DNA of 32,365 nucleotides. Origin: a virus. Numbering within the stretch: position 1 is the stretch's first letter; each line of letters opens with the position of its first letter. Position numbers and translations under genes: made by a program. A model generated the notes under the pieces. It had not been told where the DNA came from. It ran no database searches and worked only from the letters and a program-made list of their open reading frames with translations. Positions 1,189-29,680 of the stretch are shown here, piece by piece. The stretch spans positions 64,947-97,311 of the IMG/VR virus record IMGVR_UViG_3300037424_000553, one strand, 5' to 3'.

Positions 1189-1678
1189 TACGATTCTCCA
1201 GATACCGAGCCCCAGCCATGGCATAGAGTAGGGCATCAGCTTGATGCTGCGTGAGAGTCTTCTGACTGAACCGCTTCTGCATGTCAGCCAGCACATACTC
1301 CTTGTTCGCACGAACAGTGCGACCATTCCTGTTGACACGTGTTTCCTTGAGCGCGTGCCCATACACCCGTTTCTGCGCTGAGCTGGTCGTCACCATCACC
1401 CATGGGATCTCAGGCCTGTTGTAGGCCAGGAACATCTTGAGCCCGCCGATCCACTGCGCGATACGATAGAGAAACGGATGTTCCATCGTCACAGCCTCGA
1501 TGTGATACTTCCGCTCCATGTCAAGCACTAGATTCCCAAGCTGCCGGTAGTGCGCCTGCTCAGTGTCACGCTCGCTGAAGACGATCGCCATCGACTGCAA
1601 CATCTTGTCCTTCTTGGAATCGTATACACCATACCCACCGACGTACTTCCCAGGAACATCGATGCCGAGGATGATCAT
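1181..1678 (-). CDS. RuvC-like Holliday junction resolvase
   Basis: N-terminal IILGID, central VTMEHP, C-terminal HQADAL acidic motifs; ATGA overlap with the upstream gene. Confidence 0.8.
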   Translation of the reverse strand: MIILGIDVPGKYVGGYGVYDSKKDKMLQSMAIVFSERDTEQAHYRQLGNLVLDMERKYHIEAVTMEHPFLYRIAQWIGGLKMFLAYNRPEIPWVMVTTSSAQKRVYGHALKETRVNRNGRTVRANKEYVLADMQKRFSQKTLTQHQADALLYAMAGARYLENRNG

Positions 1679-2616
1679 GCTTCGGTGAAACAATCGTCAA
1701 GAATCGTAGCATCTCGCATAACATGCTCACCACGCCGCTTGATCTTTGCGAAGTGCGTCAAGAGCGAGAGGATACCCTGCCAGTATGGATCCACCATCGG
1801 AAAGTCCGGTGCAGGCATGAGCTGATCGCCCCACAACCTGACGTTCCGCTCGTAGTGCATGATCGCTGACCATTCACCAGACTCAGGCTTGCTCATCCGT
1901 GGCATCGTGTACCCGTAGGACTCTTGATCCAGGATCTCGTTCGCGAGATTCATCTCGTTCTCATAAAAATGCATCGACCCAGTGTTCTGAATGTGCATCC
2001 CGACGTCGAGCCCAACATGAACTGCCACCCATTCGTGTAGCATCGTGAACAAGAAAATATCGTATGGGTAGACCATCACAATGTTCTGACTCCTGAACGT
2101 CGTGATGCAATGCAACCGCCTGTGACGAACGAAGAACTGCATCGAGATCGGACAGGGGATGTCCTTCGAATCGATGTGATCCACCGCCCCACTGAAGATA
2201 GTAACCACTGCCCGTCGTGATGCCGGATCAGCCTTGAGCATGGCAATCACGCTCTCAAGCTGCCTGATGATCCGTGGGCCATAGGCACCGTGAAGTGAAA
2301 CACCATCATCAGAAAACTTGGTGGTGATGGGGTTGTAGTAGAGCAGTGGCTCCACGCTGTCGGTCTCCATGAACTGATACATGAAGTTCCCGAAGGCGAA
2401 CCCAAGGTTGATCGGACGAGCCAGGCTGCTAATGATACGTGAGCGTGGATACTCGAGATCCATCCTCAATCCAAGCAGCTCGATGGTCTTATGCGATGCG
2501 CTCGGCGACGTCTTGTTCAGCAGCGGTTGCACCCACTCCCCATTCTCCATGACATCACGAACTGCGATTTTGTAGAGACCAGTGCTCGTCCCACTTTGTA
2601 GATGATCACTCGACAT
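1675..2616 (-). CDS. Thymidylate synthase-superfamily pyrimidine-modifying enzyme, probably dCMP-specific
   Basis: GAYGPRI, DPASRRAV, catalytic Cys in DIPC, RSQNIVMVYPYD, GSMHFYE; Asp at the position of E. coli ThyA Asn177. Confidence 0.88.
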   Translation of the reverse strand: MSSDHLQSGTSTGLYKIAVRDVMENGEWVQPLLNKTSPSASHKTIELLGLRMDLEYPRSRIISSLARPINLGFAFGNFMYQFMETDSVEPLLYYNPITTKFSDDGVSLHGAYGPRIIRQLESVIAMLKADPASRRAVVTIFSGAVDHIDSKDIPCPISMQFFVRHRRLHCITTFRSQNIVMVYPYDIFLFTMLHEWVAVHVGLDVGMHIQNTGSMHFYENEMNLANEILDQESYGYTMPRMSKPESGEWSAIMHYERNVRLWGDQLMPAPDFPMVDPYWQGILSLLTHFAKIKRRGEHVMRDATILDDCFTEA

Positions 2617-6618: not shown

Positions 6619-7533
6619 TCAGAGGTATTGGCAGACTTCGCCGTACGCTTTCGCCACCACACTGAGTTTGTACTTCGCACAGAAGCTCATGAATCCATCG
6701 TAGTCCGGTGTCGGGAAGTCAAACGTAACTTCGGCGAGCGCATGCTTCTGAATGAACAGGGCAGCATGGAGCGAGACCAGCTTGAAGTTCCGCGCAAGAT
6801 TCCGTTCGGTCTCCGCATCGCCATTGAACGTCATGCTCTGCATATCACTCACTTCACGGAGTTGGTCCAGGCTCGGCAGATGGAGATCCCTGGAGAGCTT
6901 CTTGGCCTTGCTCTCTCCCATTCTGTTCACAGCTGGAGGGACCCCATCCCCAGGATCTCCCCTGAGACACTTGAACGCAAGGTAGTGCCCCGGGGAGTCA
7001 AACCCTGTCAACCTGGAGAAGCCAGTCAGCCCCAGATGAAACTTCTTACGGGGATCGTAGATCCAGACCCCTTCCCGGATCAGTTGCCAGAAATCTCGAT
7101 CTGTGCTCACCACCAGAGCTGGTCTCCAGGTGCTGTTCATCACAGCTAGGGCCACCAAGTCGTCACCCTCAACATCGGTGCACTGTACCTGCGAGACCGC
7201 AAGATTGCCAAGGGCTTCACGGAAAATCGACATCTGATAGTCGATGTCGTTGAACTGCACTGGGCCAAGCTTGCTCGTCCGCACCTTGTACCCGGCCCAC
7301 AACTTTCGCCTGAACGCTGACTTCTCATCCCATGTAATGATTGTCCGCTCAGGTCGATACTTCGCTACGTGTCGGAATAGCTCCGCGAGACTCCCATGAA
7401 TCAGATTGGTTGAGCCAAGCCCTTCAACAGAGAGTTGTCCCTGATAGGCATACCAACTCCGCATCGCCAGGTTTTTCCCGTCGATGATGAGCGTCTTGAT
7501 CTTAGGCAGGACGCTGGCGTCGTCGCTCGACAT
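6619..7533 (-). CDS. 5'-3' exonuclease / flap endonuclease (T4 RNase H, PolI N-terminal-like)
   Basis: LIIDGKN, FRRKLWAGYK, EGDD, STDRDFWQL, LRGDPGDGVP. Confidence 0.92.
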   Translation of the reverse strand: MSSDDASVLPKIKTLIIDGKNLAMRSWYAYQGQLSVEGLGSTNLIHGSLAELFRHVAKYRPERTIITWDEKSAFRRKLWAGYKVRTSKLGPVQFNDIDYQMSIFREALGNLAVSQVQCTDVEGDDLVALAVMNSTWRPALVVSTDRDFWQLIREGVWIYDPRKKFHLGLTGFSRLTGFDSPGHYLAFKCLRGDPGDGVPPAVNRMGESKAKKLSRDLHLPSLDQLREVSDMQSMTFNGDAETERNLARNFKLVSLHAALFIQKHALAEVTFDFPTPDYDGFMSFCAKYKLSVVAKAYGEVCQYL

Positions 7534-7891
7534 CGAAGTATAGAACCTCTTCTACAGTGTAGAACACTGGCTTGCCTTTTGAGTGCGTATACGCCACTTC
7601 CTTGTCCGAGCCTGGTGAGGTTCCCGGCAGCCGGAGCAAGCCGTGGCACTTGTCGATCCAGGCGAAATCGAACGGGAGCCTGATGCGGTAGATCTCTTCA
7701 TCATTCTCGTGCGGGACGATCATGTTCCAGAGTGCATTCACCTGCGGGAGAAATGGAATGATACCGGCCTTCAACAGAACATCAGCAACCTTGCAGGCAT
7801 CATGAATCCCCTTCTCGAGATGTGCCCGCATTGGCCCAGCCACGTAGATGTAGGTCTTCTCATCAACCAAGAGACACGCCGGGCAGGTCAT
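7502..7891 (-). CDS. Nucleoside 2-deoxyribosyltransferase-fold protein (DUF4406/DUF1937-like)
   Basis: YIYVAGPM, PFLPQ, DFAWIDKCHGLLRLPG, SPGSDKEVAY, GKPVF. Confidence 0.75.
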   Translation of the reverse strand: MTCPACLLVDEKTYIYVAGPMRAHLEKGIHDACKVADVLLKAGIIPFLPQVNALWNMIVPHENDEEIYRIRLPFDFAWIDKCHGLLRLPGTSPGSDKEVAYTHSKGKPVFYTVEEVLYFDVERRRQRPA

Positions 7892-10834: not shown

Positions 10835-11377
10835 CTATCTCCTCTCCCTGCGTTGTTGAACTGCATGTCGGTCCTGTTCCCGCTCGACTTCTGCTCTGGC
10901 GATCGTCCCAGCCTTACGGGCCAGGTCGACATCCATCTGCCGCCTGATGTTCGTGGCCAGTGCCACCAGCATATCCCGGCGGTGGGTCATCGCATCCCGC
11001 GCTGACTGGAGGCGATCAACCACTTTCTCCCACTTCAGCTTGTCATCTTCCAACTCCCGATACTTCCTGTTCTGGCTGATACGCGCCGCAACTTCCTTGT
11101 CCGTCGGTTTCTTCTCACCTTCCCCACCATGCTTGTACTCCTCGAAGAGATCTCCCTCGAGGCGATCCATCTTCAGCTTGATGAACGCGATCGCATCCTT
11201 GGCATCGGAGTGCATGGTCGCCCAGAGCGCGAACTTGGCTGGATGATCTGCCAACTCCGTATCGATGTTCCGATCATCGATCGTTACCTCATCGTAGAAG
11301 TTGACCTTCCACGTCTTGCCATTCGGTGTGATAACAGACCACTCGGCGAAGTGATCTCGTAGCTTCAGTGGCGGCAT
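10835..11377 (-). CDS. UvsY-like recombination mediator (coiled coil)
   Basis: IDDRNIDTELADHPAKFALWA start, helical body, KPTDKEVAARI, AMTHRRDMLVAL; position next to SSB and recombinase. Confidence 0.7.
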   Translation of the reverse strand: MPPLKLRDHFAEWSVITPNGKTWKVNFYDEVTIDDRNIDTELADHPAKFALWATMHSDAKDAIAFIKLKMDRLEGDLFEEYKHGGEGEKKPTDKEVAARISQNRKYRELEDDKLKWEKVVDRLQSARDAMTHRRDMLVALATNIRRQMDVDLARKAGTIARAEVEREQDRHAVQQRRERR

Positions 11378-11799
11378 TAGGCTCCACCTCCAATCTGACT
11401 CTCCCTGAGCCGCTGCTGTTCCTGGTTCATCCGCTCCTCAACGATGATACTCTTCCGAATGAACATCTCCTTGAACTTCGACCGGATCTCCGGCATGTAC
11501 ACGGGAATGTTCCAGATGTACTTCTGCGCATCGACGAATTCCTCGATCGCCGCCTCCATGTCGATGGGCCGATCCAGCTTGTGCACCTTGTAGTTGGTCG
11601 CCTTCTCGAGAAATTCGATGAGCTCACCGATCGCGCTGAGCACCATCTTGATCACCATGTCATTGCGTTCGACTGGTGTCAATTCCTCGGGCACTTCCTT
11701 CCCAGGGAACTTCAGCGCAATGACGCGCTCCTGAAACCTCTCTTGATAATCGATGTAATCCTCGAGTGTCTTGAGCGTATTACTCGTCGTTGGTGTCAT
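11377..11799 (-). CDS. All-alpha (dimeric dUTPase / T4 gp56 dCTPase / MazG-type) dNTP pyrophosphatase
   Basis: GELIEFLE...YKVHK...AIEEFVDAQKY metal-binding pattern; start uncertain (11799-11832). Confidence 0.75.
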   Translation of the reverse strand: MTPTTSNTLKTLEDYIDYQERFQERVIALKFPGKEVPEELTPVERNDMVIKMVLSAIGELIEFLEKATNYKVHKLDRPIDMEAAIEEFVDAQKYIWNIPVYMPEIRSKFKEMFIRKSIIVEERMNQEQQRLRESQIGGGA

Positions 11800-14700
11800 C
11801 ATCATCTCCATCCTTCTCGGATTTTTCATCACCCTTGTTGCGCTTGATCGTGTTCTCTCTGAGCTTCGCCCGCTGCTTGTCGGTCAAGCCCGGCACCAAC
11901 AGCTCCCATTCCGTCTCCGGATAGCACGCCACCAAGATCCGATACGACGGTGGGAAGATCAGCTTGCTCCAATAGTAGTCGTGATCGTAGATCCCCTTGA
12001 AGTCGTCGACGTGCACCGCCTGAAGCTTCGGCTTATACCCGGTCACGATATAGGGCACCTTCATGCCCACGTAGAATTCACCACCCGCATCTCTGAACTT
12101 ACGGGCGATCTCAACATGCACGGTCTTGGCCTTGTAACTTTCAATAGCCCGTGCGATACCCTTGGTGATTGTGATCTGCTCGATAGGCAGCTCGCCATTC
12201 AGGACCTTCTCACGCTCGGACATAAGAAAGTCGACGAGATGTTTCCGATTCACCTTCTGCCTGACCACCATCTCGATGATCGTCCGTTGCATGTCCCGGG
12301 CATACTCGATCCCATCCGAGCGCATGCACTCGAGCCCCTTCACCTCGGTGAAGCTCGCCTTCTTCCCCTTGTACATCGTCATCAGCCCTGCGTAGCGCTT
12401 CTTCCGGACAAAGAACATCCGGCTGAAGTAGTTCTCGTATTCCAGCTCGACGAGGAATCGTGACTCTGGAATGCCAAACTTCTCGTAGAGATGTTTCTTC
12501 AGATACTCGTTGCACCCAGCAACGAACGATGCACCCTGATCAGCCGGGAGTTTGATGTACATCGAGTCGGTGTCACCCGCCAGTGGTTCCAATCCTTGGA
12601 GCTTCGTGTAGTCGATCGCCTGCTTGAGGATGTACTGCCCACCAAGCGTGACCGCCTCGGCGACTTTGGGATTGAAGTAGCGACTCTCGACGTTGCCCAT
12701 ATCACCGTAGAAGGAAAGCCCCAGTCGCTTGAACGAATACGCCAGTCTGTAGTAGAGCAGAAACAGATCCGAGCCGACCTCTTGATCGGCCTGGAGCTTC
12801 TGGTAGACCTTCCGTTTCTCACCCGTGTCTTGGAAGATCTCCGGGATGAATCCCTTGCGTGACGTGAGGAACTTTGTCCCTGTCGGCGCGGTCACATACT
12901 CCGAGGGATCGAGCTTCTTCGCCTGCTCATCGGTGATATACGTCTCAGGACTGATGTTCCAGGCGAGCATCACTGATGGATACAGACTCTTGAAGTCGAC
13001 CGCCGCTACATCTTCGAAGATCCCAATCTTAGGATCCAGCACGTACGCCCCTTCGTACATACTTCCTTCAACACCGTACTCCCGCTTCTTGAAGTCGACC
13101 TTCCCACCTTCCTGCATGATGCGAACTTTCTTCGTCGGAAAGTGCATCCCCACCTGCTTGCCACGCTTGAGTAGCAGTGAATCGATTTTCGTGGTGATGT
13201 GATAGTCCCTGGCGAAGCAGTTCCCAATCCGCGAGAAGACCTGGTCAATCTTCGCATAGCCTGAGTGCTGCTCGAGCTGAACAAGCAGATTCGCATCGTA
13301 GCGGTTGTACTCCTCCAGAATGTCTGGCGCCTGCCGGTACAGCTCGAGGAATCGATGGACGTTGAGCCCACGATCCTTACACTTCTCTCGCCAGTCCAGC
13401 TTGCTTGTCTTCAACTGATGCTGCGCGATGGACTGCAATGAGAAGCTCACCATCGCCGATGCCCCACGCTGATGATACCGCTTCCAGGTCCTGAGCAGGT
13501 CAATGGTATGCGTATAGTCCCAGCGCGCTGTGACACCATGCATCCGCATCCGTTGCCGCAGGATCGGGAAGTCGAAGTTGTTCCCGTTCCAGGCATACAT
13601 GATGTCGATCTCTGGCATCTCGCGGGCGAACTTGATGAGCATCATCTTCTCTGAGCGATCGTTCTCCTTCTCGAGCAAGAGGAATCCCTTGCGAGGCTCA
13701 CGACTCTTGTCCTTCCAATGTGTCTCCCAGGCTATCGAGAGAATACGACGTTCGGCAAGATCCCGACGATCGATGAGTGGCTTGGTGTCATCGGTCTCGA
13801 TGTCAATGTACATCTCATCATACGCGCTCTGGATCTTGATGTCGTAGTCTGTGAGAAACCGGCGGGATGGTGTCAGATCCGCTTCGTAGTGCTTGACGCC
13901 CTCCTTCTCGATATCATCTAGCAACTCTCTGAGCAGACGATCCTTGGGATATTTCTTGAGGATGTTGTCGTCCCAGAGTGTGAGGTAACTCTCGAGGAGA
14001 TGCTCCTTCAAGGCCGCGGTACGAATAACCCACCGCTCGGAGTACACCTTGGTCCACTCTGGATTCACTTCATCCGGTTCGAGACGATGAACAGCGCCTT
14101 CCTTCATCCAGTATGCCCAGAACTTCTGCCCAAGCTTGAGTGCGTCTGTCGTCCTGAGATAGAAGTACCAGTTGAAATCGATGCCACCACGAACAACTTC
14201 TTCAGATTTCTGTCCATTGGCATTCGCGTAGACCAGTACAACATTCTTGCCGTCTGACCAAGCTGTGCTGTACTCTCGCTTGTCGTTCCATGGATTCCGG
14301 GAGAACACACCGGACTTGGCTTCCAGGGCGGCGATGACACTCTTGTCCTCTTGATGATGTTCAGTCCTGGTCTGATCGACGTACGTCCCCGTACTCGACT
14401 CCCCGACCAGAACAAGCGCCCGCTGGAGCATGTCCATGACCTTCCGCCGTGTGGTCATGTCCTGCGGGTTGTAGATGAAATGCGCCGGATGATAGAGCGG
14501 AATGATGATGTACCCGTTCTTCTCGATCTCACGCCCAAGCAACTCCTTCATCGGGCTGTTGAGATCCAAGAGGGCCTTCACCGCATAGGCACCCCAGGCA
14601 AGAATCACCCGCGGTTTCACCAGCGCGATTTCTTTCTCCAGCCATTTCTTAGTACAGGTGTCAATCCACTCCTGTTTAGGCTTGGCAATCTTGCCCTTGT

Positions 14701-14941
14701 CGTCGTAACCAGGGAAGCACTTCACAGTATTGGTCACGTACATCTGCGCCCGACTGAAGCCTGCCTCCTCCAACATCTGATCGAACAGAACACCAGACTT
14801 GCCGACCAGCGGGCGCCCCGCCTTGTCCTCACTCGGTCCCGGCGCCTCGGCAACAGACATGATCCGCGCCTTGGACGGTCCTTCGCCAAACACGACCTGC
14901 TTGGACGTCTTATGACAGTCACAGGCTGTGCACCGCATCAT
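11780..14941 (-). CDS. Family B DNA polymerase with N-terminal family-4 uracil-DNA glycosylase-like domain
   Basis: UDG: CTAC, VFGEG, AEAPG, GRPLVG, TNTVKC, YHPA. Exonuclease: DIET, WNGNNFD, YNRYD. Polymerase: DFKSLYPS, KRLGLSFYG, AGDTDS, KKRYAG, KGLE. Confidence 0.95.
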   Translation of the reverse strand: MMRCTACDCHKTSKQVVFGEGPSKARIMSVAEAPGPSEDKAGRPLVGKSGVLFDQMLEEAGFSRAQMYVTNTVKCFPGYDDKGKIAKPKQEWIDTCTKKWLEKEIALVKPRVILAWGAYAVKALLDLNSPMKELLGREIEKNGYIIIPLYHPAHFIYNPQDMTTRRKVMDMLQRALVLVGESSTGTYVDQTRTEHHQEDKSVIAALEAKSGVFSRNPWNDKREYSTAWSDGKNVVLVYANANGQKSEEVVRGGIDFNWYFYLRTTDALKLGQKFWAYWMKEGAVHRLEPDEVNPEWTKVYSERWVIRTAALKEHLLESYLTLWDDNILKKYPKDRLLRELLDDIEKEGVKHYEADLTPSRRFLTDYDIKIQSAYDEMYIDIETDDTKPLIDRRDLAERRILSIAWETHWKDKSREPRKGFLLLEKENDRSEKMMLIKFAREMPEIDIMYAWNGNNFDFPILRQRMRMHGVTARWDYTHTIDLLRTWKRYHQRGASAMVSFSLQSIAQHQLKTSKLDWREKCKDRGLNVHRFLELYRQAPDILEEYNRYDANLLVQLEQHSGYAKIDQVFSRIGNCFARDYHITTKIDSLLLKRGKQVGMHFPTKKVRIMQEGGKVDFKKREYGVEGSMYEGAYVLDPKIGIFEDVAAVDFKSLYPSVMLAWNISPETYITDEQAKKLDPSEYVTAPTGTKFLTSRKGFIPEIFQDTGEKRKVYQKLQADQEVGSDLFLLYYRLAYSFKRLGLSFYGDMGNVESRYFNPKVAEAVTLGGQYILKQAIDYTKLQGLEPLAGDTDSMYIKLPADQGASFVAGCNEYLKKHLYEKFGIPESRFLVELEYENYFSRMFFVRKKRYAGLMTMYKGKKASFTEVKGLECMRSDGIEYARDMQRTIIEMVVRQKVNRKHLVDFLMSEREKVLNGELPIEQITITKGIARAIESYKAKTVHVEIARKFRDAGGEFYVGMKVPYIVTGYKPKLQAVHVDDFKGIYDHDYYWSKLIFPPSYRILVACYPETEWELLVPGLTDKQRAKLRENTIKRNKGDEKSEKDGDDDDTNDE

Positions 14942-15549
14942 GGCACCTTGATTCCTTCTCCGGCATTCAGGCGTCTGAAGACGGCTCTAACAAACGCCCA
15001 CTGATTCTCGTACGACAGTCGCGAGACACCATCGGGATAGAGCAAGGACGCCGGATGATTGACGTACACGCTGATCCATCGATAGGACGCTCGCTCATCA
15101 ACGAGACGCGACTCGTACCACTGACACTTGAATGACTGCGTAAGCCCGATCCGCTTGCCTGCTACATTTCCGAGCGCGACAATGAGTTTCAGGTTGGGCA
15201 ATCTGACGAGCTCACTCTCTAACCAGTCAGCGCACTTGTTGACGTACTCGTCATGTGCCTTGCCCTCGCACTTCATCGCGTTGGTCACATAGAAATCCTC
15301 GAGCCTGAATCCAGCGTCAGTCATGACCGAGCGAAGGATCTCACTGCCCTTGGTCGTCTCTTGAGAATCCCAGAGATGTAACTCAAACGGAATGCGCTTG
15401 GGATTCTGTGGGACCGCATTCCCTGGATTCTGTGCGAGCAGCAGCATCGACGCATCAACATTTCCAATGCCAAGCCCCTTACTCGCCCGGAGCAGGCAAT
15501 GATCGCACTTGCGAATGACGTCGTTAAGTGTAAGTGACTCTAAGACCAT
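14938..15549 (-). CDS. Stand-alone uracil-DNA glycosylase-superfamily protein (Fe-S type)
   Basis: CDHC, LLAQNPG, YVTNAMKC, later C, IVALGNVA, NHPASLLY. Confidence 0.82.
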   Translation of the reverse strand: MVLESLTLNDVIRKCDHCLLRASKGLGIGNVDASMLLLAQNPGNAVPQNPKRIPFELHLWDSQETTKGSEILRSVMTDAGFRLEDFYVTNAMKCEGKAHDEYVNKCADWLESELVRLPNLKLIVALGNVAGKRIGLTQSFKCQWYESRLVDERASYRWISVYVNHPASLLYPDGVSRLSYENQWAFVRAVFRRLNAGEGIKVP

Positions 15550-16063
15550 GATGCCTCATGATCCGCTGGAAATCAATCACCAGCGCATCGATCGAACGTG
15601 TCCCATCGAGGATGTGCGTCTGATACAGATGCGTCGACAGTCCATGCGTCCATCGCTCGTATGCTTGATAAATCTGCGTATGCCGCTCAGTGATGACGCC
15701 CATATCTCCTCGGTCACTCATGCGCCGCTGCGCGACCTCTTGTGGTACACGGAGATAACACACGACAAGTCCGCCCGGCTCCCATGGCCCTCGATAGGCT
15801 GGGATCGGGCGGTTGTAGACTTGCGCGTAGATCGGACCTGTCACGACGGCAAAGCGATCGCAGATATACGTGCTTGCTCGATCGTACATCGATGAGAAGA
15901 GAGCAATGTCGCGTTGTTCCAGTTTGGCGATCTGCTCCCATAGATCTCGATCGAACGGTCCCCAGTTCACAAACTTCATGTTGTCGAACGTGAGGAGTTG
16001 TTTGAGCCGATGGTACAAGGTGGTCTTGCCGCATCCATCGGGTCCTTCGAGAGCGAAGATCAT
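15524..16063 (-). CDS. dNMP kinase (thymidylate-kinase fold)
   Basis: P-loop LEGPDGCGKTT, ICDR motif, lid QRRMSDRG. Confidence 0.85.
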   Translation of the reverse strand: MIFALEGPDGCGKTTLYHRLKQLLTFDNMKFVNWGPFDRDLWEQIAKLEQRDIALFSSMYDRASTYICDRFAVVTGPIYAQVYNRPIPAYRGPWEPGGLVVCYLRVPQEVAQRRMSDRGDMGVITERHTQIYQAYERWTHGLSTHLYQTHILDGTRSIDALVIDFQRIMRHHGLRVTYT

Positions 16064-27940: not shown

Positions 27941-29680
27941 TCATTTCGTCGGCTTGAACTGCTTGACGTACTCGATGATCTTCGCCGTAATCGGCTTGCC
28001 CTTGCTCATCAACCCACCGAGCTTCAGCAGGTTCTTGATGTCACGCCCAGAAAGCTTCTCACCCTCTCTGGCCATCTTGTGCACGATCATCTTCCGCTCG
28101 GTGAGTGCCAACTCCATCTTGCTGGCCTCAGCGAGGATCTGCCAGATCTTATGCTGATCCGCCTCATCCGGATACTCGTACGTCAGCTTTGCGATACAGC
28201 GTGACGCGACGGCATCGTCGACATCATCAGCCCTGTTGGTGGTCAGGAATAGCACCGCCGACTGATACTCCAGGACGCGCAGGAAGACGCCGACGATCGC
28301 GTTCTGGTTGAGATCATCGCCACGTTGCCGGACGTAGACATCGGCCTCATCAAGGAGCATCACGCTATTCCACCGACTGTTCCTGACGAAGCACTTCATC
28401 AGCTCCTTCTCGAGATCCTCTGGCGTGATCCCGAGCTGCGAGCACTGAACCGAGTAGAGCGCCCGCTGCTCGGTCTCGGCGTAGACTTCCGCGGTCAGCG
28501 TCTTGCCAGTGCCAGGCTTGCCACAGAGCAGGATCACGGCGCCACCACTCTTCCCGCCGACGATGTCCTGGAATCCACCGCTCTTATGCTCGATGAGCAG
28601 GGCGACCAGTTGCTTCAACTCATCCCTGAGCACCAGCTTGTCCGCAAGCGTCGTGTCGTAGACGTGCGACTCCACGTTCTGGACATGCAGTCGAAGCCTG
28701 ACGTGCTTCTTCAGATCATAGATCGCCAGGTTCAGATGAATCGGGATCTCGATGTCGTTCTCATTTGGCATGATGATCGTGGGCAGATCCTCACCCTCGT
28801 TTTCATCGTCATCTTCGACATCATCGATATCATCATGTCCTTCCAGCTTGGATGCCGTCACCTTCTTACCCCAGTAGTCGCGATTGATCCAGATATTGTC
28901 ACGGTCCCGCTTCTTGGGGTTCTCATAGAACACATCGATCACGGCACGCCCTGGCTCGTCCTGTGATCCGATCGCGACAGCCGGTGGTGTCCGCCAGTGC
29001 CAGCCATTGTCGTCATCGCCACCGAGCTCATCAAGATCCGGCACTCCAACGCCCCAGACATGCAGCTGATGCCCGATCTTTGGCTGCAAGGTGATGTAAC
29101 GAGCCCGCTGCTCCAGGTACTCAGCCCGCATCTCCTCGGTCTCGACGAAGTACTTCCTCGTCGCTAGTACATCCAGCGGCGTTTTGTGCATGAGGTCGGC
29201 GTTCCATAGCAGCAGCTTCTCGATGTGCCGCTCACCGAACTCCTGGTACAGCAGATACAGGATGATATGTGCCGGCGTGATGCCGTTGCTGTTCTCCCGC
29301 TTCGGCACATACTCGATGTTGTCCAGGTAGTACGGCCACCACAGGTCGTCATCCTGATAGTACAGCCGATGCCCTGGGACATCCTTGAGCGAGGCCTTCA
29401 TCAGCGTCGACATCTGGAAGGCATCACGGGCAACCTGATTGGCTTCGCCCTTCATTGCCTTCTGCCACACCTTGATGTTGTGGAGAGCAGTTTGCACGCC
29501 CCGCAGCTTGGTATGCTGCTTGAGCAGCGTTGACAACTCCTCCAAGCGCTTGGTGCTCAGCACCTGAAGGTCAATCTCTCGCTTCTCGTTGAGCCCCCAG
29601 CCAAGATCACGGGCGCCAAACGCTGTGAGTGTCTTCAACCCAATACCTTCGGCGGTATCCTTCTTGAGGATGATATTCAT
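27941..29680 (-). CDS. AAA+ ATPase with long N-terminal region
   Basis: Walker A GKPGTGKT, Walker B LLDEAD, FLRVLEY, TTNR...DDAVASR, SGRDIKN. Confidence 0.92.
   Translation of the reverse strand: MNIILKKDTAEGIGLKTLTAFGARDLGWGLNEKREIDLQVLSTKRLEELSTLLKQHTKLRGVQTALHNIKVWQKAMKGEANQVARDAFQMSTLMKASLKDVPGHRLYYQDDDLWWPYYLDNIEYVPKRENSNGITPAHIILYLLYQEFGERHIEKLLLWNADLMHKTPLDVLATRKYFVETEEMRAEYLEQRARYITLQPKIGHQLHVWGVGVPDLDELGGDDDNGWHWRTPPAVAIGSQDEPGRAVIDVFYENPKKRDRDNIWINRDYWGKKVTASKLEGHDDIDDVEDDDENEGEDLPTIIMPNENDIEIPIHLNLAIYDLKKHVRLRLHVQNVESHVYDTTLADKLVLRDELKQLVALLIEHKSGGFQDIVGGKSGGAVILLCGKPGTGKTLTAEVYAETEQRALYSVQCSQLGITPEDLEKELMKCFVRNSRWNSVMLLDEADVYVRQRGDDLNQNAIVGVFLRVLEYQSAVLFLTTNRADDVDDAVASRCIAKLTYEYPDEADQHKIWQILAEASKMELALTERKMIVHKMAREGEKLSGRDIKNLLKLGGLMSKGKPITAKIIEYVKQFKPTK

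Follow-up and report, generated by a model that had tools for sequence, protein, structure and literature searches.

A uracil-DNA glycosylase domain of family 4 on a family B DNA polymerase of a metagenomic virus, encoded next to a divergent stand-alone glycosylase

The coupling between a uracil-DNA glycosylase (UDG) and a DNA polymerase has so far been explained mechanistically, by structure and biochemistry, for family A phage polymerases (PolA) only. The UDG-PolA proteins of YerA41 and phiLo excise deoxyuridine from the template ahead of the polymerase, and the resulting abasic site is bypassed; in cryo-electron microscopy of the SP15-like UDG-PolA the UDG sits on the 5' single-stranded template, and the family B polymerase of poxviruses, including mpox, has the UDG on its template side (PMC13697223). 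For family B polymerases (PolB), UDG coupling is known in trans only, in pox- and herpesviruses. Here we describe a UDG joined in cis to a PolB, together with a second, stand-alone UDG (UDG2) encoded upstream of it, in a 32,365-nucleotide stretch of viral DNA (hereafter the window). The window is the final 32 kb of a 97,311-base IMG/VR virus record (IMGVR_UViG_3300037424_000553) rated 92% complete. The fusion is a conserved and selectively maintained architecture. As a family B analogue of the uracil-removing family A polymerases solved recently, it is not a new kind of system. The function that we favour for it, with moderate confidence, is replication-coupled uracil excision by a catalytically competent cis UDG on a replicative PolB.

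The two genes, and the parts of the fusion protein, are as follows (window positions; aa, amino acids):

11780..14941, minus strand: UDG-PolB fusion gene (P0001), 1053 aa, a single open reading frame (ORF) with Pfam UDG, PolB exonuclease and DNA_pol_B domains
14402..14941, minus strand: N-terminal family-4 Fe-S UDG domain, residues 1-180 (TIGR00758, 1UI0 match, invariant columns)
14276..14401, minus strand: linker, residues 181-222 (pLDDT 41-56; HHQEDK-x-VIAALE-x-KSGVF motif)
13202..14275, minus strand: PolB N-terminal and 3'-5' exonuclease region, residues 223-580 (Pfam exonuclease-type matches at 413-557)
11780..13201, minus strand: polymerase region and acidic C-terminal tail, residues 581-1053 (PF00136, DNA_pol_B, at 583-971, E 2.1e-47)
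14938..15549, minus strand: UDG2, a stand-alone divergent Fe-S UDG (P0002), 203 aa (Pfam UDG, E 3.8e-12)

Both ORFs had been described in an earlier note made from the DNA letters of the window, and both are confirmed with these coordinates and lengths.

The UDG-PolB fusion and its relatives

The source gene call places the start of PolB at Val17 (1037 aa, P0003). Since a CxxC pair begins every relative, the 1053-aa ORF has the correct start. The Pfam UDG domain spans residues 18-163 (E 8.5e-31), and residues 1-200 score 134.9 bits on the family-4 UDG model TIGR00758, above its cut-off of 125.3. The same residues match Thermus thermophilus UDG (1UI0) with E 7e-34. Alignments with UdgX and with three family-4 UDGs (T. 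thermophilus, T. maritima and S. tokodaii) run the full length (E 7e-34 to 1e-21), and the family A polymerase of phiLo gives a weaker match through its UDG domain (9QHS, E 1.8e-10).

The domain carries A31-E32-A33-P34-G35 as motif A and Y150-H151-P152-A153 as motif B, along with N71, L45 and the cysteines C4, C7, C75 and C96. Across 13 aligned fusions, including the distant P0031, the four cysteines, E32, N71 and H151-P152 are invariant. The cysteines line up with those of 1UI0, and ligation of a [4Fe-4S] cluster is predicted. The earlier note had read the N-terminal domain as a family-4 Fe-S UDG with AEAPG and YHPA, and the TIGR00758 score and invariant cysteines bear this out. Set against the family-4 motif A, GE(A/G)PG, the catalytic Glu is kept, and the first Gly is Ala in the window, the clade consensus being GEAPG; motif B follows the HP(S/A) pattern (H151-P152-A153) and the uracil-reading Asn is N71. 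The aromatic residue that stacks on the flipped uracil in family 4 (Phe of GRPFVG) is kept as Phe in most relatives; it is replaced by L45 in the window, by Met in L008 and by Trp in P0009. Motif A starts with Ala, as in the window, also in L008, the nearest relative (89% identical); those further away have the canonical GEAPG or GEGPG and PF. In UdgX H109S, the E52N change cuts kcat/Km about 75-fold, the motif A Glu activating water in this scaffold (PMC10359453). A UdgX-type cross-linking enzyme was considered and rejected: there is no His in the loop after VKCFPG, and no KRRIH loop in either the fusion or UDG2. On the UdgX model TIGR03914 (cut-off 189.95 bits) the cis domain scores 144.4 and UDG2 31, both below the cut-off.

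The polymerase part has Exo I (D380-I-E382), Exo II (N452...D457) and Exo III (Y545...D549), as well as polymerase motifs A (D649), B (K738...Y745-G746) and C (D790-T-D792). All of these are invariant among aligned relatives, as in a proofreading family B enzyme; the polymerase belongs to PF00136 (family B) and not to PF00476 (family A). In the AlphaFold2 model of the fusion protein (mean pLDDT 83, pTM 0.66), the closest solved folds to the polymerase core are those of the archaeal PolBs 9N, KOD and Tgo (TM 0.73-0.76, on target). Between the two parts, residues 183-201 are predicted to be disordered. The linker motif is nevertheless near-invariant and kept in all main fusion-clade members, and is not found in the separate fusion P0031. 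A weaker echo of it, DK-x-V...DFDEMKD, occurs at the same position in sister PolBs that have no UDG, and the motif may be a docking peptide for another replisome protein.

Against L008, the ratio of nonsynonymous to synonymous substitution rates comes to ~0.11 (UDG domain), 0.06 (polymerase) and ~0.15 (UDG2), values that are rough, as synonymous sites are near saturation in this comparison. They indicate purifying selection on all three.

A search of 5.8 billion proteins returned at least 14 metagenomic UDG+PolB relatives at 53-74% identity, the further UDG-PolB fusion P0031 at 31% identity, and a block of PolBs without UDG at 37-43% identity. In IMG/VR, 3 full-length fusion loci are found among 29 related PolB loci, and the ESM Atlas holds two PolB+UDG clusters of 81 and 50 members, nearly all viral. 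A region-restricted homologue search added no further relatives. The architecture of UDG, PolB exonuclease and PolB thus recurs across these collections, and an assembly artefact, which the earlier note had named as a possible undoing of its claim, is ruled out by the same continuous ORF on independent contigs from four sources (JGI, ENA, Logan and NCBI). One metagenomic fusion-clade PolB (P0016, 1100 aa) is interrupted by intein/endonuclease-type domains (Pfam Intein_splicing, Vsr and PF04480).

Phylogenies of the polymerase and of the UDG domain were built with FastTree, and their deep branches are weakly supported. In the polymerase tree, the main fusion clade forms a monophyletic group within PolBs that lack a UDG, and P0031 groups elsewhere, beside a UDG-less protein. 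In the UDG-domain tree, the domains of the main clade cluster together (support 100), and that of P0031 falls outside. As P0031 separates from the main clade in both trees, the UDG-PolB fusion probably arose at least twice. The same searches also found UDGs fused to family A polymerases (P0045, P0173, P0212, P0216 and P0250) and to DnaE-type family C polymerases (P0046, P0124 and P0221).

Among GenBank phages, megablast with the locus gave no match, and tblastn with the whole fusion protein gave PolB cores only, beyond residue 349. With the UDG domain alone, tblastn against the same phages gave 50 records, and this search brought up no UDG-PolB in an isolated phage. The three polymerases checked among these records are of family A, and further ones are SPO1-like PolA or, in Methanobacterium virus PhiF1, DnaE. 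A literature search found no paper on a UDG-PolB fusion and none on the QNPG motif described below.

The stand-alone UDG upstream of the polymerase

The genes of UDG2 and PolB share 4 bases (ATGA), where the stop codon of the former overlaps the start of the latter; a purine-rich stretch precedes this junction closely. The window, L003/L004 and L008 have UDG2 immediately upstream of the fusion gene; in L001 one small ORF separates the two. Its Fe-S cysteines are C15, C18, C94 and C106; motif A is A39-Q40-N41-P42-G43, and P54-F55, N90 and H165-P166-A167 follow. In the 9 members of the UDG2 family all of these are invariant except within motif A, where N41 is invariant, and all nine also have an insertion of ~9 residues after the Pro-Phe and a shorter Fe-S loop. 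Motif A is (A/G)QNPG: where family 4 has Glu, most of the nine carry Gln and the L001 copy carries Met, and none has Glu. On TIGR00758, UDG2 scores 41.4 bits against the cut-off of 125.3. In its Fe-S cysteines, motif B and fold, UDG2 is like family 4; in model score and in the motif A Glu, it is not. The description of the upstream gene in the earlier note, as a UDG-superfamily protein with a different motif A (AQNPG) whose gene overlaps that of PolB, agrees with the Pfam UDG match given above.

The AlphaFold2 model of UDG2 has a pLDDT of 94, and its top Foldseek matches are 4ZBY, 1UI1 and UdgX (TM 0.66-0.73), with TDG structures ranking far lower (E about 4e-5, TM about 0.5). Motif A of MUG/TDG is GINPG and that of SMUG is GMNPG, each with a catalytic Asn (PMC4787834). 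UDG2 shares the Asn at the third position of this motif, and differs from both groups in its closest fold and sequence and in having the Fe-S cysteines. One UDG2 relative has GMNTG and a sister-clade protein has GINPS. The QNPG form is also found in more distant Fe-S UDGs, including the UDG of the DnaE fusion P0124.

A profile search with UDG2 against 1.84 billion representative proteins gave only six clusters above 1e-30, followed by a sharp drop to generic family-4-like proteins. By this distribution, UDG2 represents a small, separate subfamily. Among the side matches of the search, P0191, P0123 and P0124 have unusual UDG architectures. One protein, 667 aa long, joins a UDG to the M and C domains of a Mur ligase; another, of 416 aa, has two regions resembling UDG; and the third is a DnaE polymerase of 1484 aa that bears a UDG of the QNPG type.

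Two complete sister genomes whose PolB carries no UDG (G002 and G003) have exactly one UDG each, a stand-alone Asn-type protein (GINPS) immediately upstream of PolB. Because the same type sits upstream of these UDG-less PolBs, the stand-alone Asn-type UDG probably predates the fusion. A recent tandem duplication, as implied by the term "tandem paralogue" in the earlier note, is rejected, since UDG2 and the cis domain are ~20% identical and fall in different parts of the UDG tree. The simplest history would be that a trans Asn-type UDG stood beside PolB first, and that a canonical family-4 UDG was fused to the polymerase later in one sub-lineage.

Gene neighbourhood and probable cytosine modification

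Nearly all genes of the window are on the minus strand, where they form a T4-like replication and recombination module. The genes that bear on nucleotide metabolism are:

11377..11832, minus strand: small nucleoside triphosphate (NTP) pyrophosphohydrolase, dimeric dUTPase/MazG-like, adjoining PolB downstream (phrog_173, E 4.5e-6)
15524..16063, minus strand: deoxynucleoside monophosphate (dNMP)/thymidylate-kinase-like P-loop kinase, adjoining UDG2 upstream (phrog_761, E 3.7e-17; weak dNK and Thymidylate_kin matches)
1675..2616, minus strand: thymidylate synthase (TS) homologue of the cytosine-hydroxymethylase type (catalytic Cys155; Asp186 at the position of ThyA Asn177)

The other genes of the module encode a UvsW-like helicase, a DnaB-type helicase, a primase, a GT4-like protein (weak GT4 match), a UvsY-like protein, a gp32-like single-stranded DNA-binding protein, RecA/UvsX, a FEN-type exonuclease, a U32-family protein and an Mre11/Rad50-type nuclease. 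A 579-aa AAA+ protein (window 27941-29680, minus strand) has its best match in the phage "ATP-dependent protease" family phrog_29662 (1.8e-72), and a weak similarity to clamp loaders.

The order of dNMP kinase, UDG2, UDG-PolB and dUTPase_2-like gene is conserved. The kinase gene is syntenic in L001, L003 and L010, and the syntenic counterparts of the pyrophosphohydrolase in L001 and L003 match PF08761 (dUTPase_2). As listed, with a GTG start, the pyrophosphohydrolase ORF overlaps the 3' end of PolB by 53 nt. It is likely to be the dCTPase/dUTPase of a modification pathway.

The best solved match of the TS homologue is the CMP 5-hydroxymethylase MilA (5B6D, E 6.8e-26, versus about 1e-13 for ThyA). 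In place of ThyA Asn177 it carries an Asp, an Asn stands where Asp169 would be, and the catalytic Cys is kept; this Cys and the Asp are invariant in relatives. This Asp-type homologue is present on every fusion-clade contig that is long enough (the window, L001/L002, L003 and G001), and is missing from two complete sister-clade genomes that lack the fusion. Together with the dNMP kinase, the dUTPase_2/MazG-like gene and the weak GT4 match, it makes up a set like that of T4 for hydroxymethylcytosine, which points to a cytosine-modified phage genome, as far as the nature of the base can be read from gene content. Because the TS homologue resembles a C5-hydroxymethylase of cytosine, its product is more likely to be a 5-hydroxymethyl base; 5-hydroxycytosine and 5-hydroxyuracil, brought up in the earlier note, gained no support in the tests made. 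For P0031, the second independent fusion lineage, no modification gene was found within 10 kb on either side, the flanks being the part searched.

A 129-aa protein encoded at window 7502-7891 (minus strand) has weak DUF7768/DUF4406 matches, and its counterpart in L003 (16723-17043) weakly matches Nuc_deoxyrib_tr (PF05014). The Nuc_deoxyrib_tr superfamily includes dNMP N-glycosidases, and the 129-aa protein might clean up deaminated modified nucleotides. Close to PolB and the dNMP kinase, L009 (2010-2984) and L010 (4213-5184) of the fusion clade encode a radical SAM/SPASM protein, a hint that bases may be modified by another chemistry in this sub-lineage.

Proposed function and comparison with known systems

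In the replication-coupled excision that we favour, the flexible yet conserved linker of ~40 residues would tether the family-4 [4Fe-4S] UDG to PolB. The UDG domain would travel with the replisome and encounter DNA at the fork; the single-stranded template in front of the active site is the most plausible contact. Uracil originating from dUTP incorporation, or from deamination of unmodified cytosine, would be flipped out and excised so that none is propagated to the progeny genome. Since neither an apurinic/apyrimidinic (AP) endonuclease nor a ligase turned up in the phage genome, the downstream repair steps would be left to the host. The setting would be a T4-style replacement of cytosine by means of the putative C5-hydroxymethylase, dNMP kinase, NTP pyrophosphohydrolase and glycosyltransferase-like gene. 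UDG2 would act in trans, as a slower glycosylase of different specificity or as a lesion-binding partner of the same polymerase; it may be an older, separate member of the Fe-S UDG radiation, with Gln in place of the general-base Glu and Asn at the catalytic position of MUG/TDG and SMUG. Base surveillance coupled to replication, proposed in the earlier note, is therefore the best-supported reading, with experimental precedent in UDG-PolA fusions (PMC13697223).

Several points weigh against it. The Ala and Leu/Met changes of the window sub-lineage may have weakened uracil excision in this phage. The UDG domain is tethered in a docking position that the model leaves unfixed, given the pTM of 0.66 and the disordered linker. 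Two fusion-clade loci, L009 and L010, have no UDG2 upstream of PolB, and the link of the fusion to modification genes is drawn from few genomes. Proofreading replicative family B polymerases usually stall at abasic sites, so that uracil removal in front of the fork might do harm if the fork is not rescued by recombination. Neither an AP endonuclease of either class nor an ATP ligase was detected by Pfam in the 92%-complete genome, whereas SP15-like phages encode PolX and a ligase. These Pfam negatives, and that for a clamp below, are weak ones, as part of the genome is missing from the record and divergent proteins can be missed.

The main alternative, though unlikely, is that the UDG domain, UDG2 or both are mainly DNA-binding processivity or scaffold modules for a clamp-less polymerase, with chemistry secondary or lost. 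No gp45-type, beta-clamp or PCNA domain was found by Pfam in the genome, and the loss of the stacking Phe and the altered motif A in the window sub-lineage fit such a role, for which there is precedent in vaccinia D4 with A20 (PMC3201878) and in a proposal for N4-like and T5-like PolA (PMC10201439); for polymerase-fused UDGs it is an idea of long standing. However, the catalytic Glu, Asn and His are invariant and most members are fully canonical, and pure DNA binding would need neither; a divergent clamp could, moreover, escape Pfam. The two roles are also compatible, since vaccinia D4 both excises uracil and serves processivity. A doubtful alternative is that UDG2, and possibly the cis domain too, is specialised for deaminated modified cytosine, 5-hydroxymethyluracil or 5-hydroxyuracil, so that the pair covers two lesions. 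MUG/TDG and SMUG enzymes act on 5-substituted uracils. UDG2 has Asn at the motif A position of these enzymes (GINPG and GMNPG; PMC4787834), and GMNTG is found in one UDG2 relative and GINPS in the sister-clade protein; the TS homologue is of the cytosine type, and the DUF4406/DUF7768 protein of the same operon, weak as its matches are, could clear deaminated nucleotides. The fold of UDG2, however, is like family 4 and not like TDG or SMUG, and Asn-type UDGs stand upstream of PolB also in sister genomes without the TS homologue, so UDG2 is not tied to the modification pathway.

It is far less probable still that the UDGs are weapons against host DNA that contains uracil or is unmodified, or assist the polymerase in rejecting unmodified templates, instead of repairing phage DNA. 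What speaks for this is the association with a base-modification gene set, and the suggestion in the earlier note that phage and host DNA might be told apart. Engineered UNG mutants needed an Asn-to-Asp type of change to excise cytosine. Here the Asn that reads the O4/N3 face of uracil is retained in both proteins (N71 and N90), with no change of that type, which makes discrimination via cytosine excision unlikely and led us to reject a cytosine-excising variant; the tether to the replicase, in addition, points to phage DNA as the substrate. A bolder combination, which we consider rather improbable, is a clamp-less PolB replisome with two-tier pyrimidine surveillance. The cis UDG would pre-scan the template, and the translationally coupled UDG2 would be a polymerase-associated, D4-like subunit that removes deaminated modified cytosine or acts as a processivity factor. 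If this were true, UDG2 would be a new functional family within the UDG superfamily.

Returning to replication-coupled excision, cis UDG-PolB fusions with probably at least two origins and well over a hundred metagenomic proteins suggest that uracil removal has been coupled convergently to polymerases of families A, B and C. The fusion clade offers a compact single-polypeptide model of a proofreading family B enzyme facing abasic sites of its own making, and such polymerases may serve to copy modified DNA while excluding uracil. Beyond the published work found, it adds a gene set that apparently modifies cytosine rather than thymine, and a conserved Asn-type Fe-S UDG partner.

Compared with described systems, the nearest cellular proteins are the family-4 UDGa enzymes of Thermus, Thermotoga and Sulfolobus (1UI0, 1L9G and 4ZBX) and UdgX, with which the Fe-S scaffold, the HPA/HPS motif and the uracil-reading Asn are shared. 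The cellular family-4 UDGs are stand-alone, however, and UDG2 falls below the curated score and has QNPG instead of GE(A/G)PG. The archaeal PolBs with an N-terminal uracil read-ahead pocket (Tgo, KOD and 9N; 2VWJ) have the closest polymerase folds and sense template uracil ahead of synthesis, but these enzymes capture uracil in the pocket and stall without excising it, whereas here a whole glycosylase domain is appended. In poxviruses, the UDG (vaccinia D4, mpox E4) is coupled with A20/A22 to a family B replicase (E9/F8), touches the template in front of the active site and is at the same time a processivity component. It is a family 1 UDG and a separate subunit bridged by A20, unlike the family-4 Fe-S domain in cis of this bacteriophage. 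The N4-like UDG-PolA (cluster 17 of PMC10201439) is similar in having an N-terminal family-4 UDG-like domain on a phage replicase, with a possible non-catalytic role; the catalytic residues are lost there, while Glu, Asn and His are kept here, and the polymerase family differs. The closest counterparts are the SP15-like/SPO1-like UDG-PolA proteins (YerA41, phiLo and SP-15; PDB 9QHS; PMC13697223), which likewise have an N-terminal cis UDG with the catalytic Glu and His, of type 4 in phiLo, in phages with pyrimidine-modification genes. The present polymerase is instead of family B and has no Insert 1, Insert 2 or CTD. The genomes of those phages are T-modified, whereas the module here looks cytosine-directed, no PolX or ligase was found in this genome, and a second, Asn-type UDG is encoded in trans. 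The UDG-PolB fusion is thus an analogue, and not a member, of the SP15-like/SPO1-like UDG-polymerase fusions.

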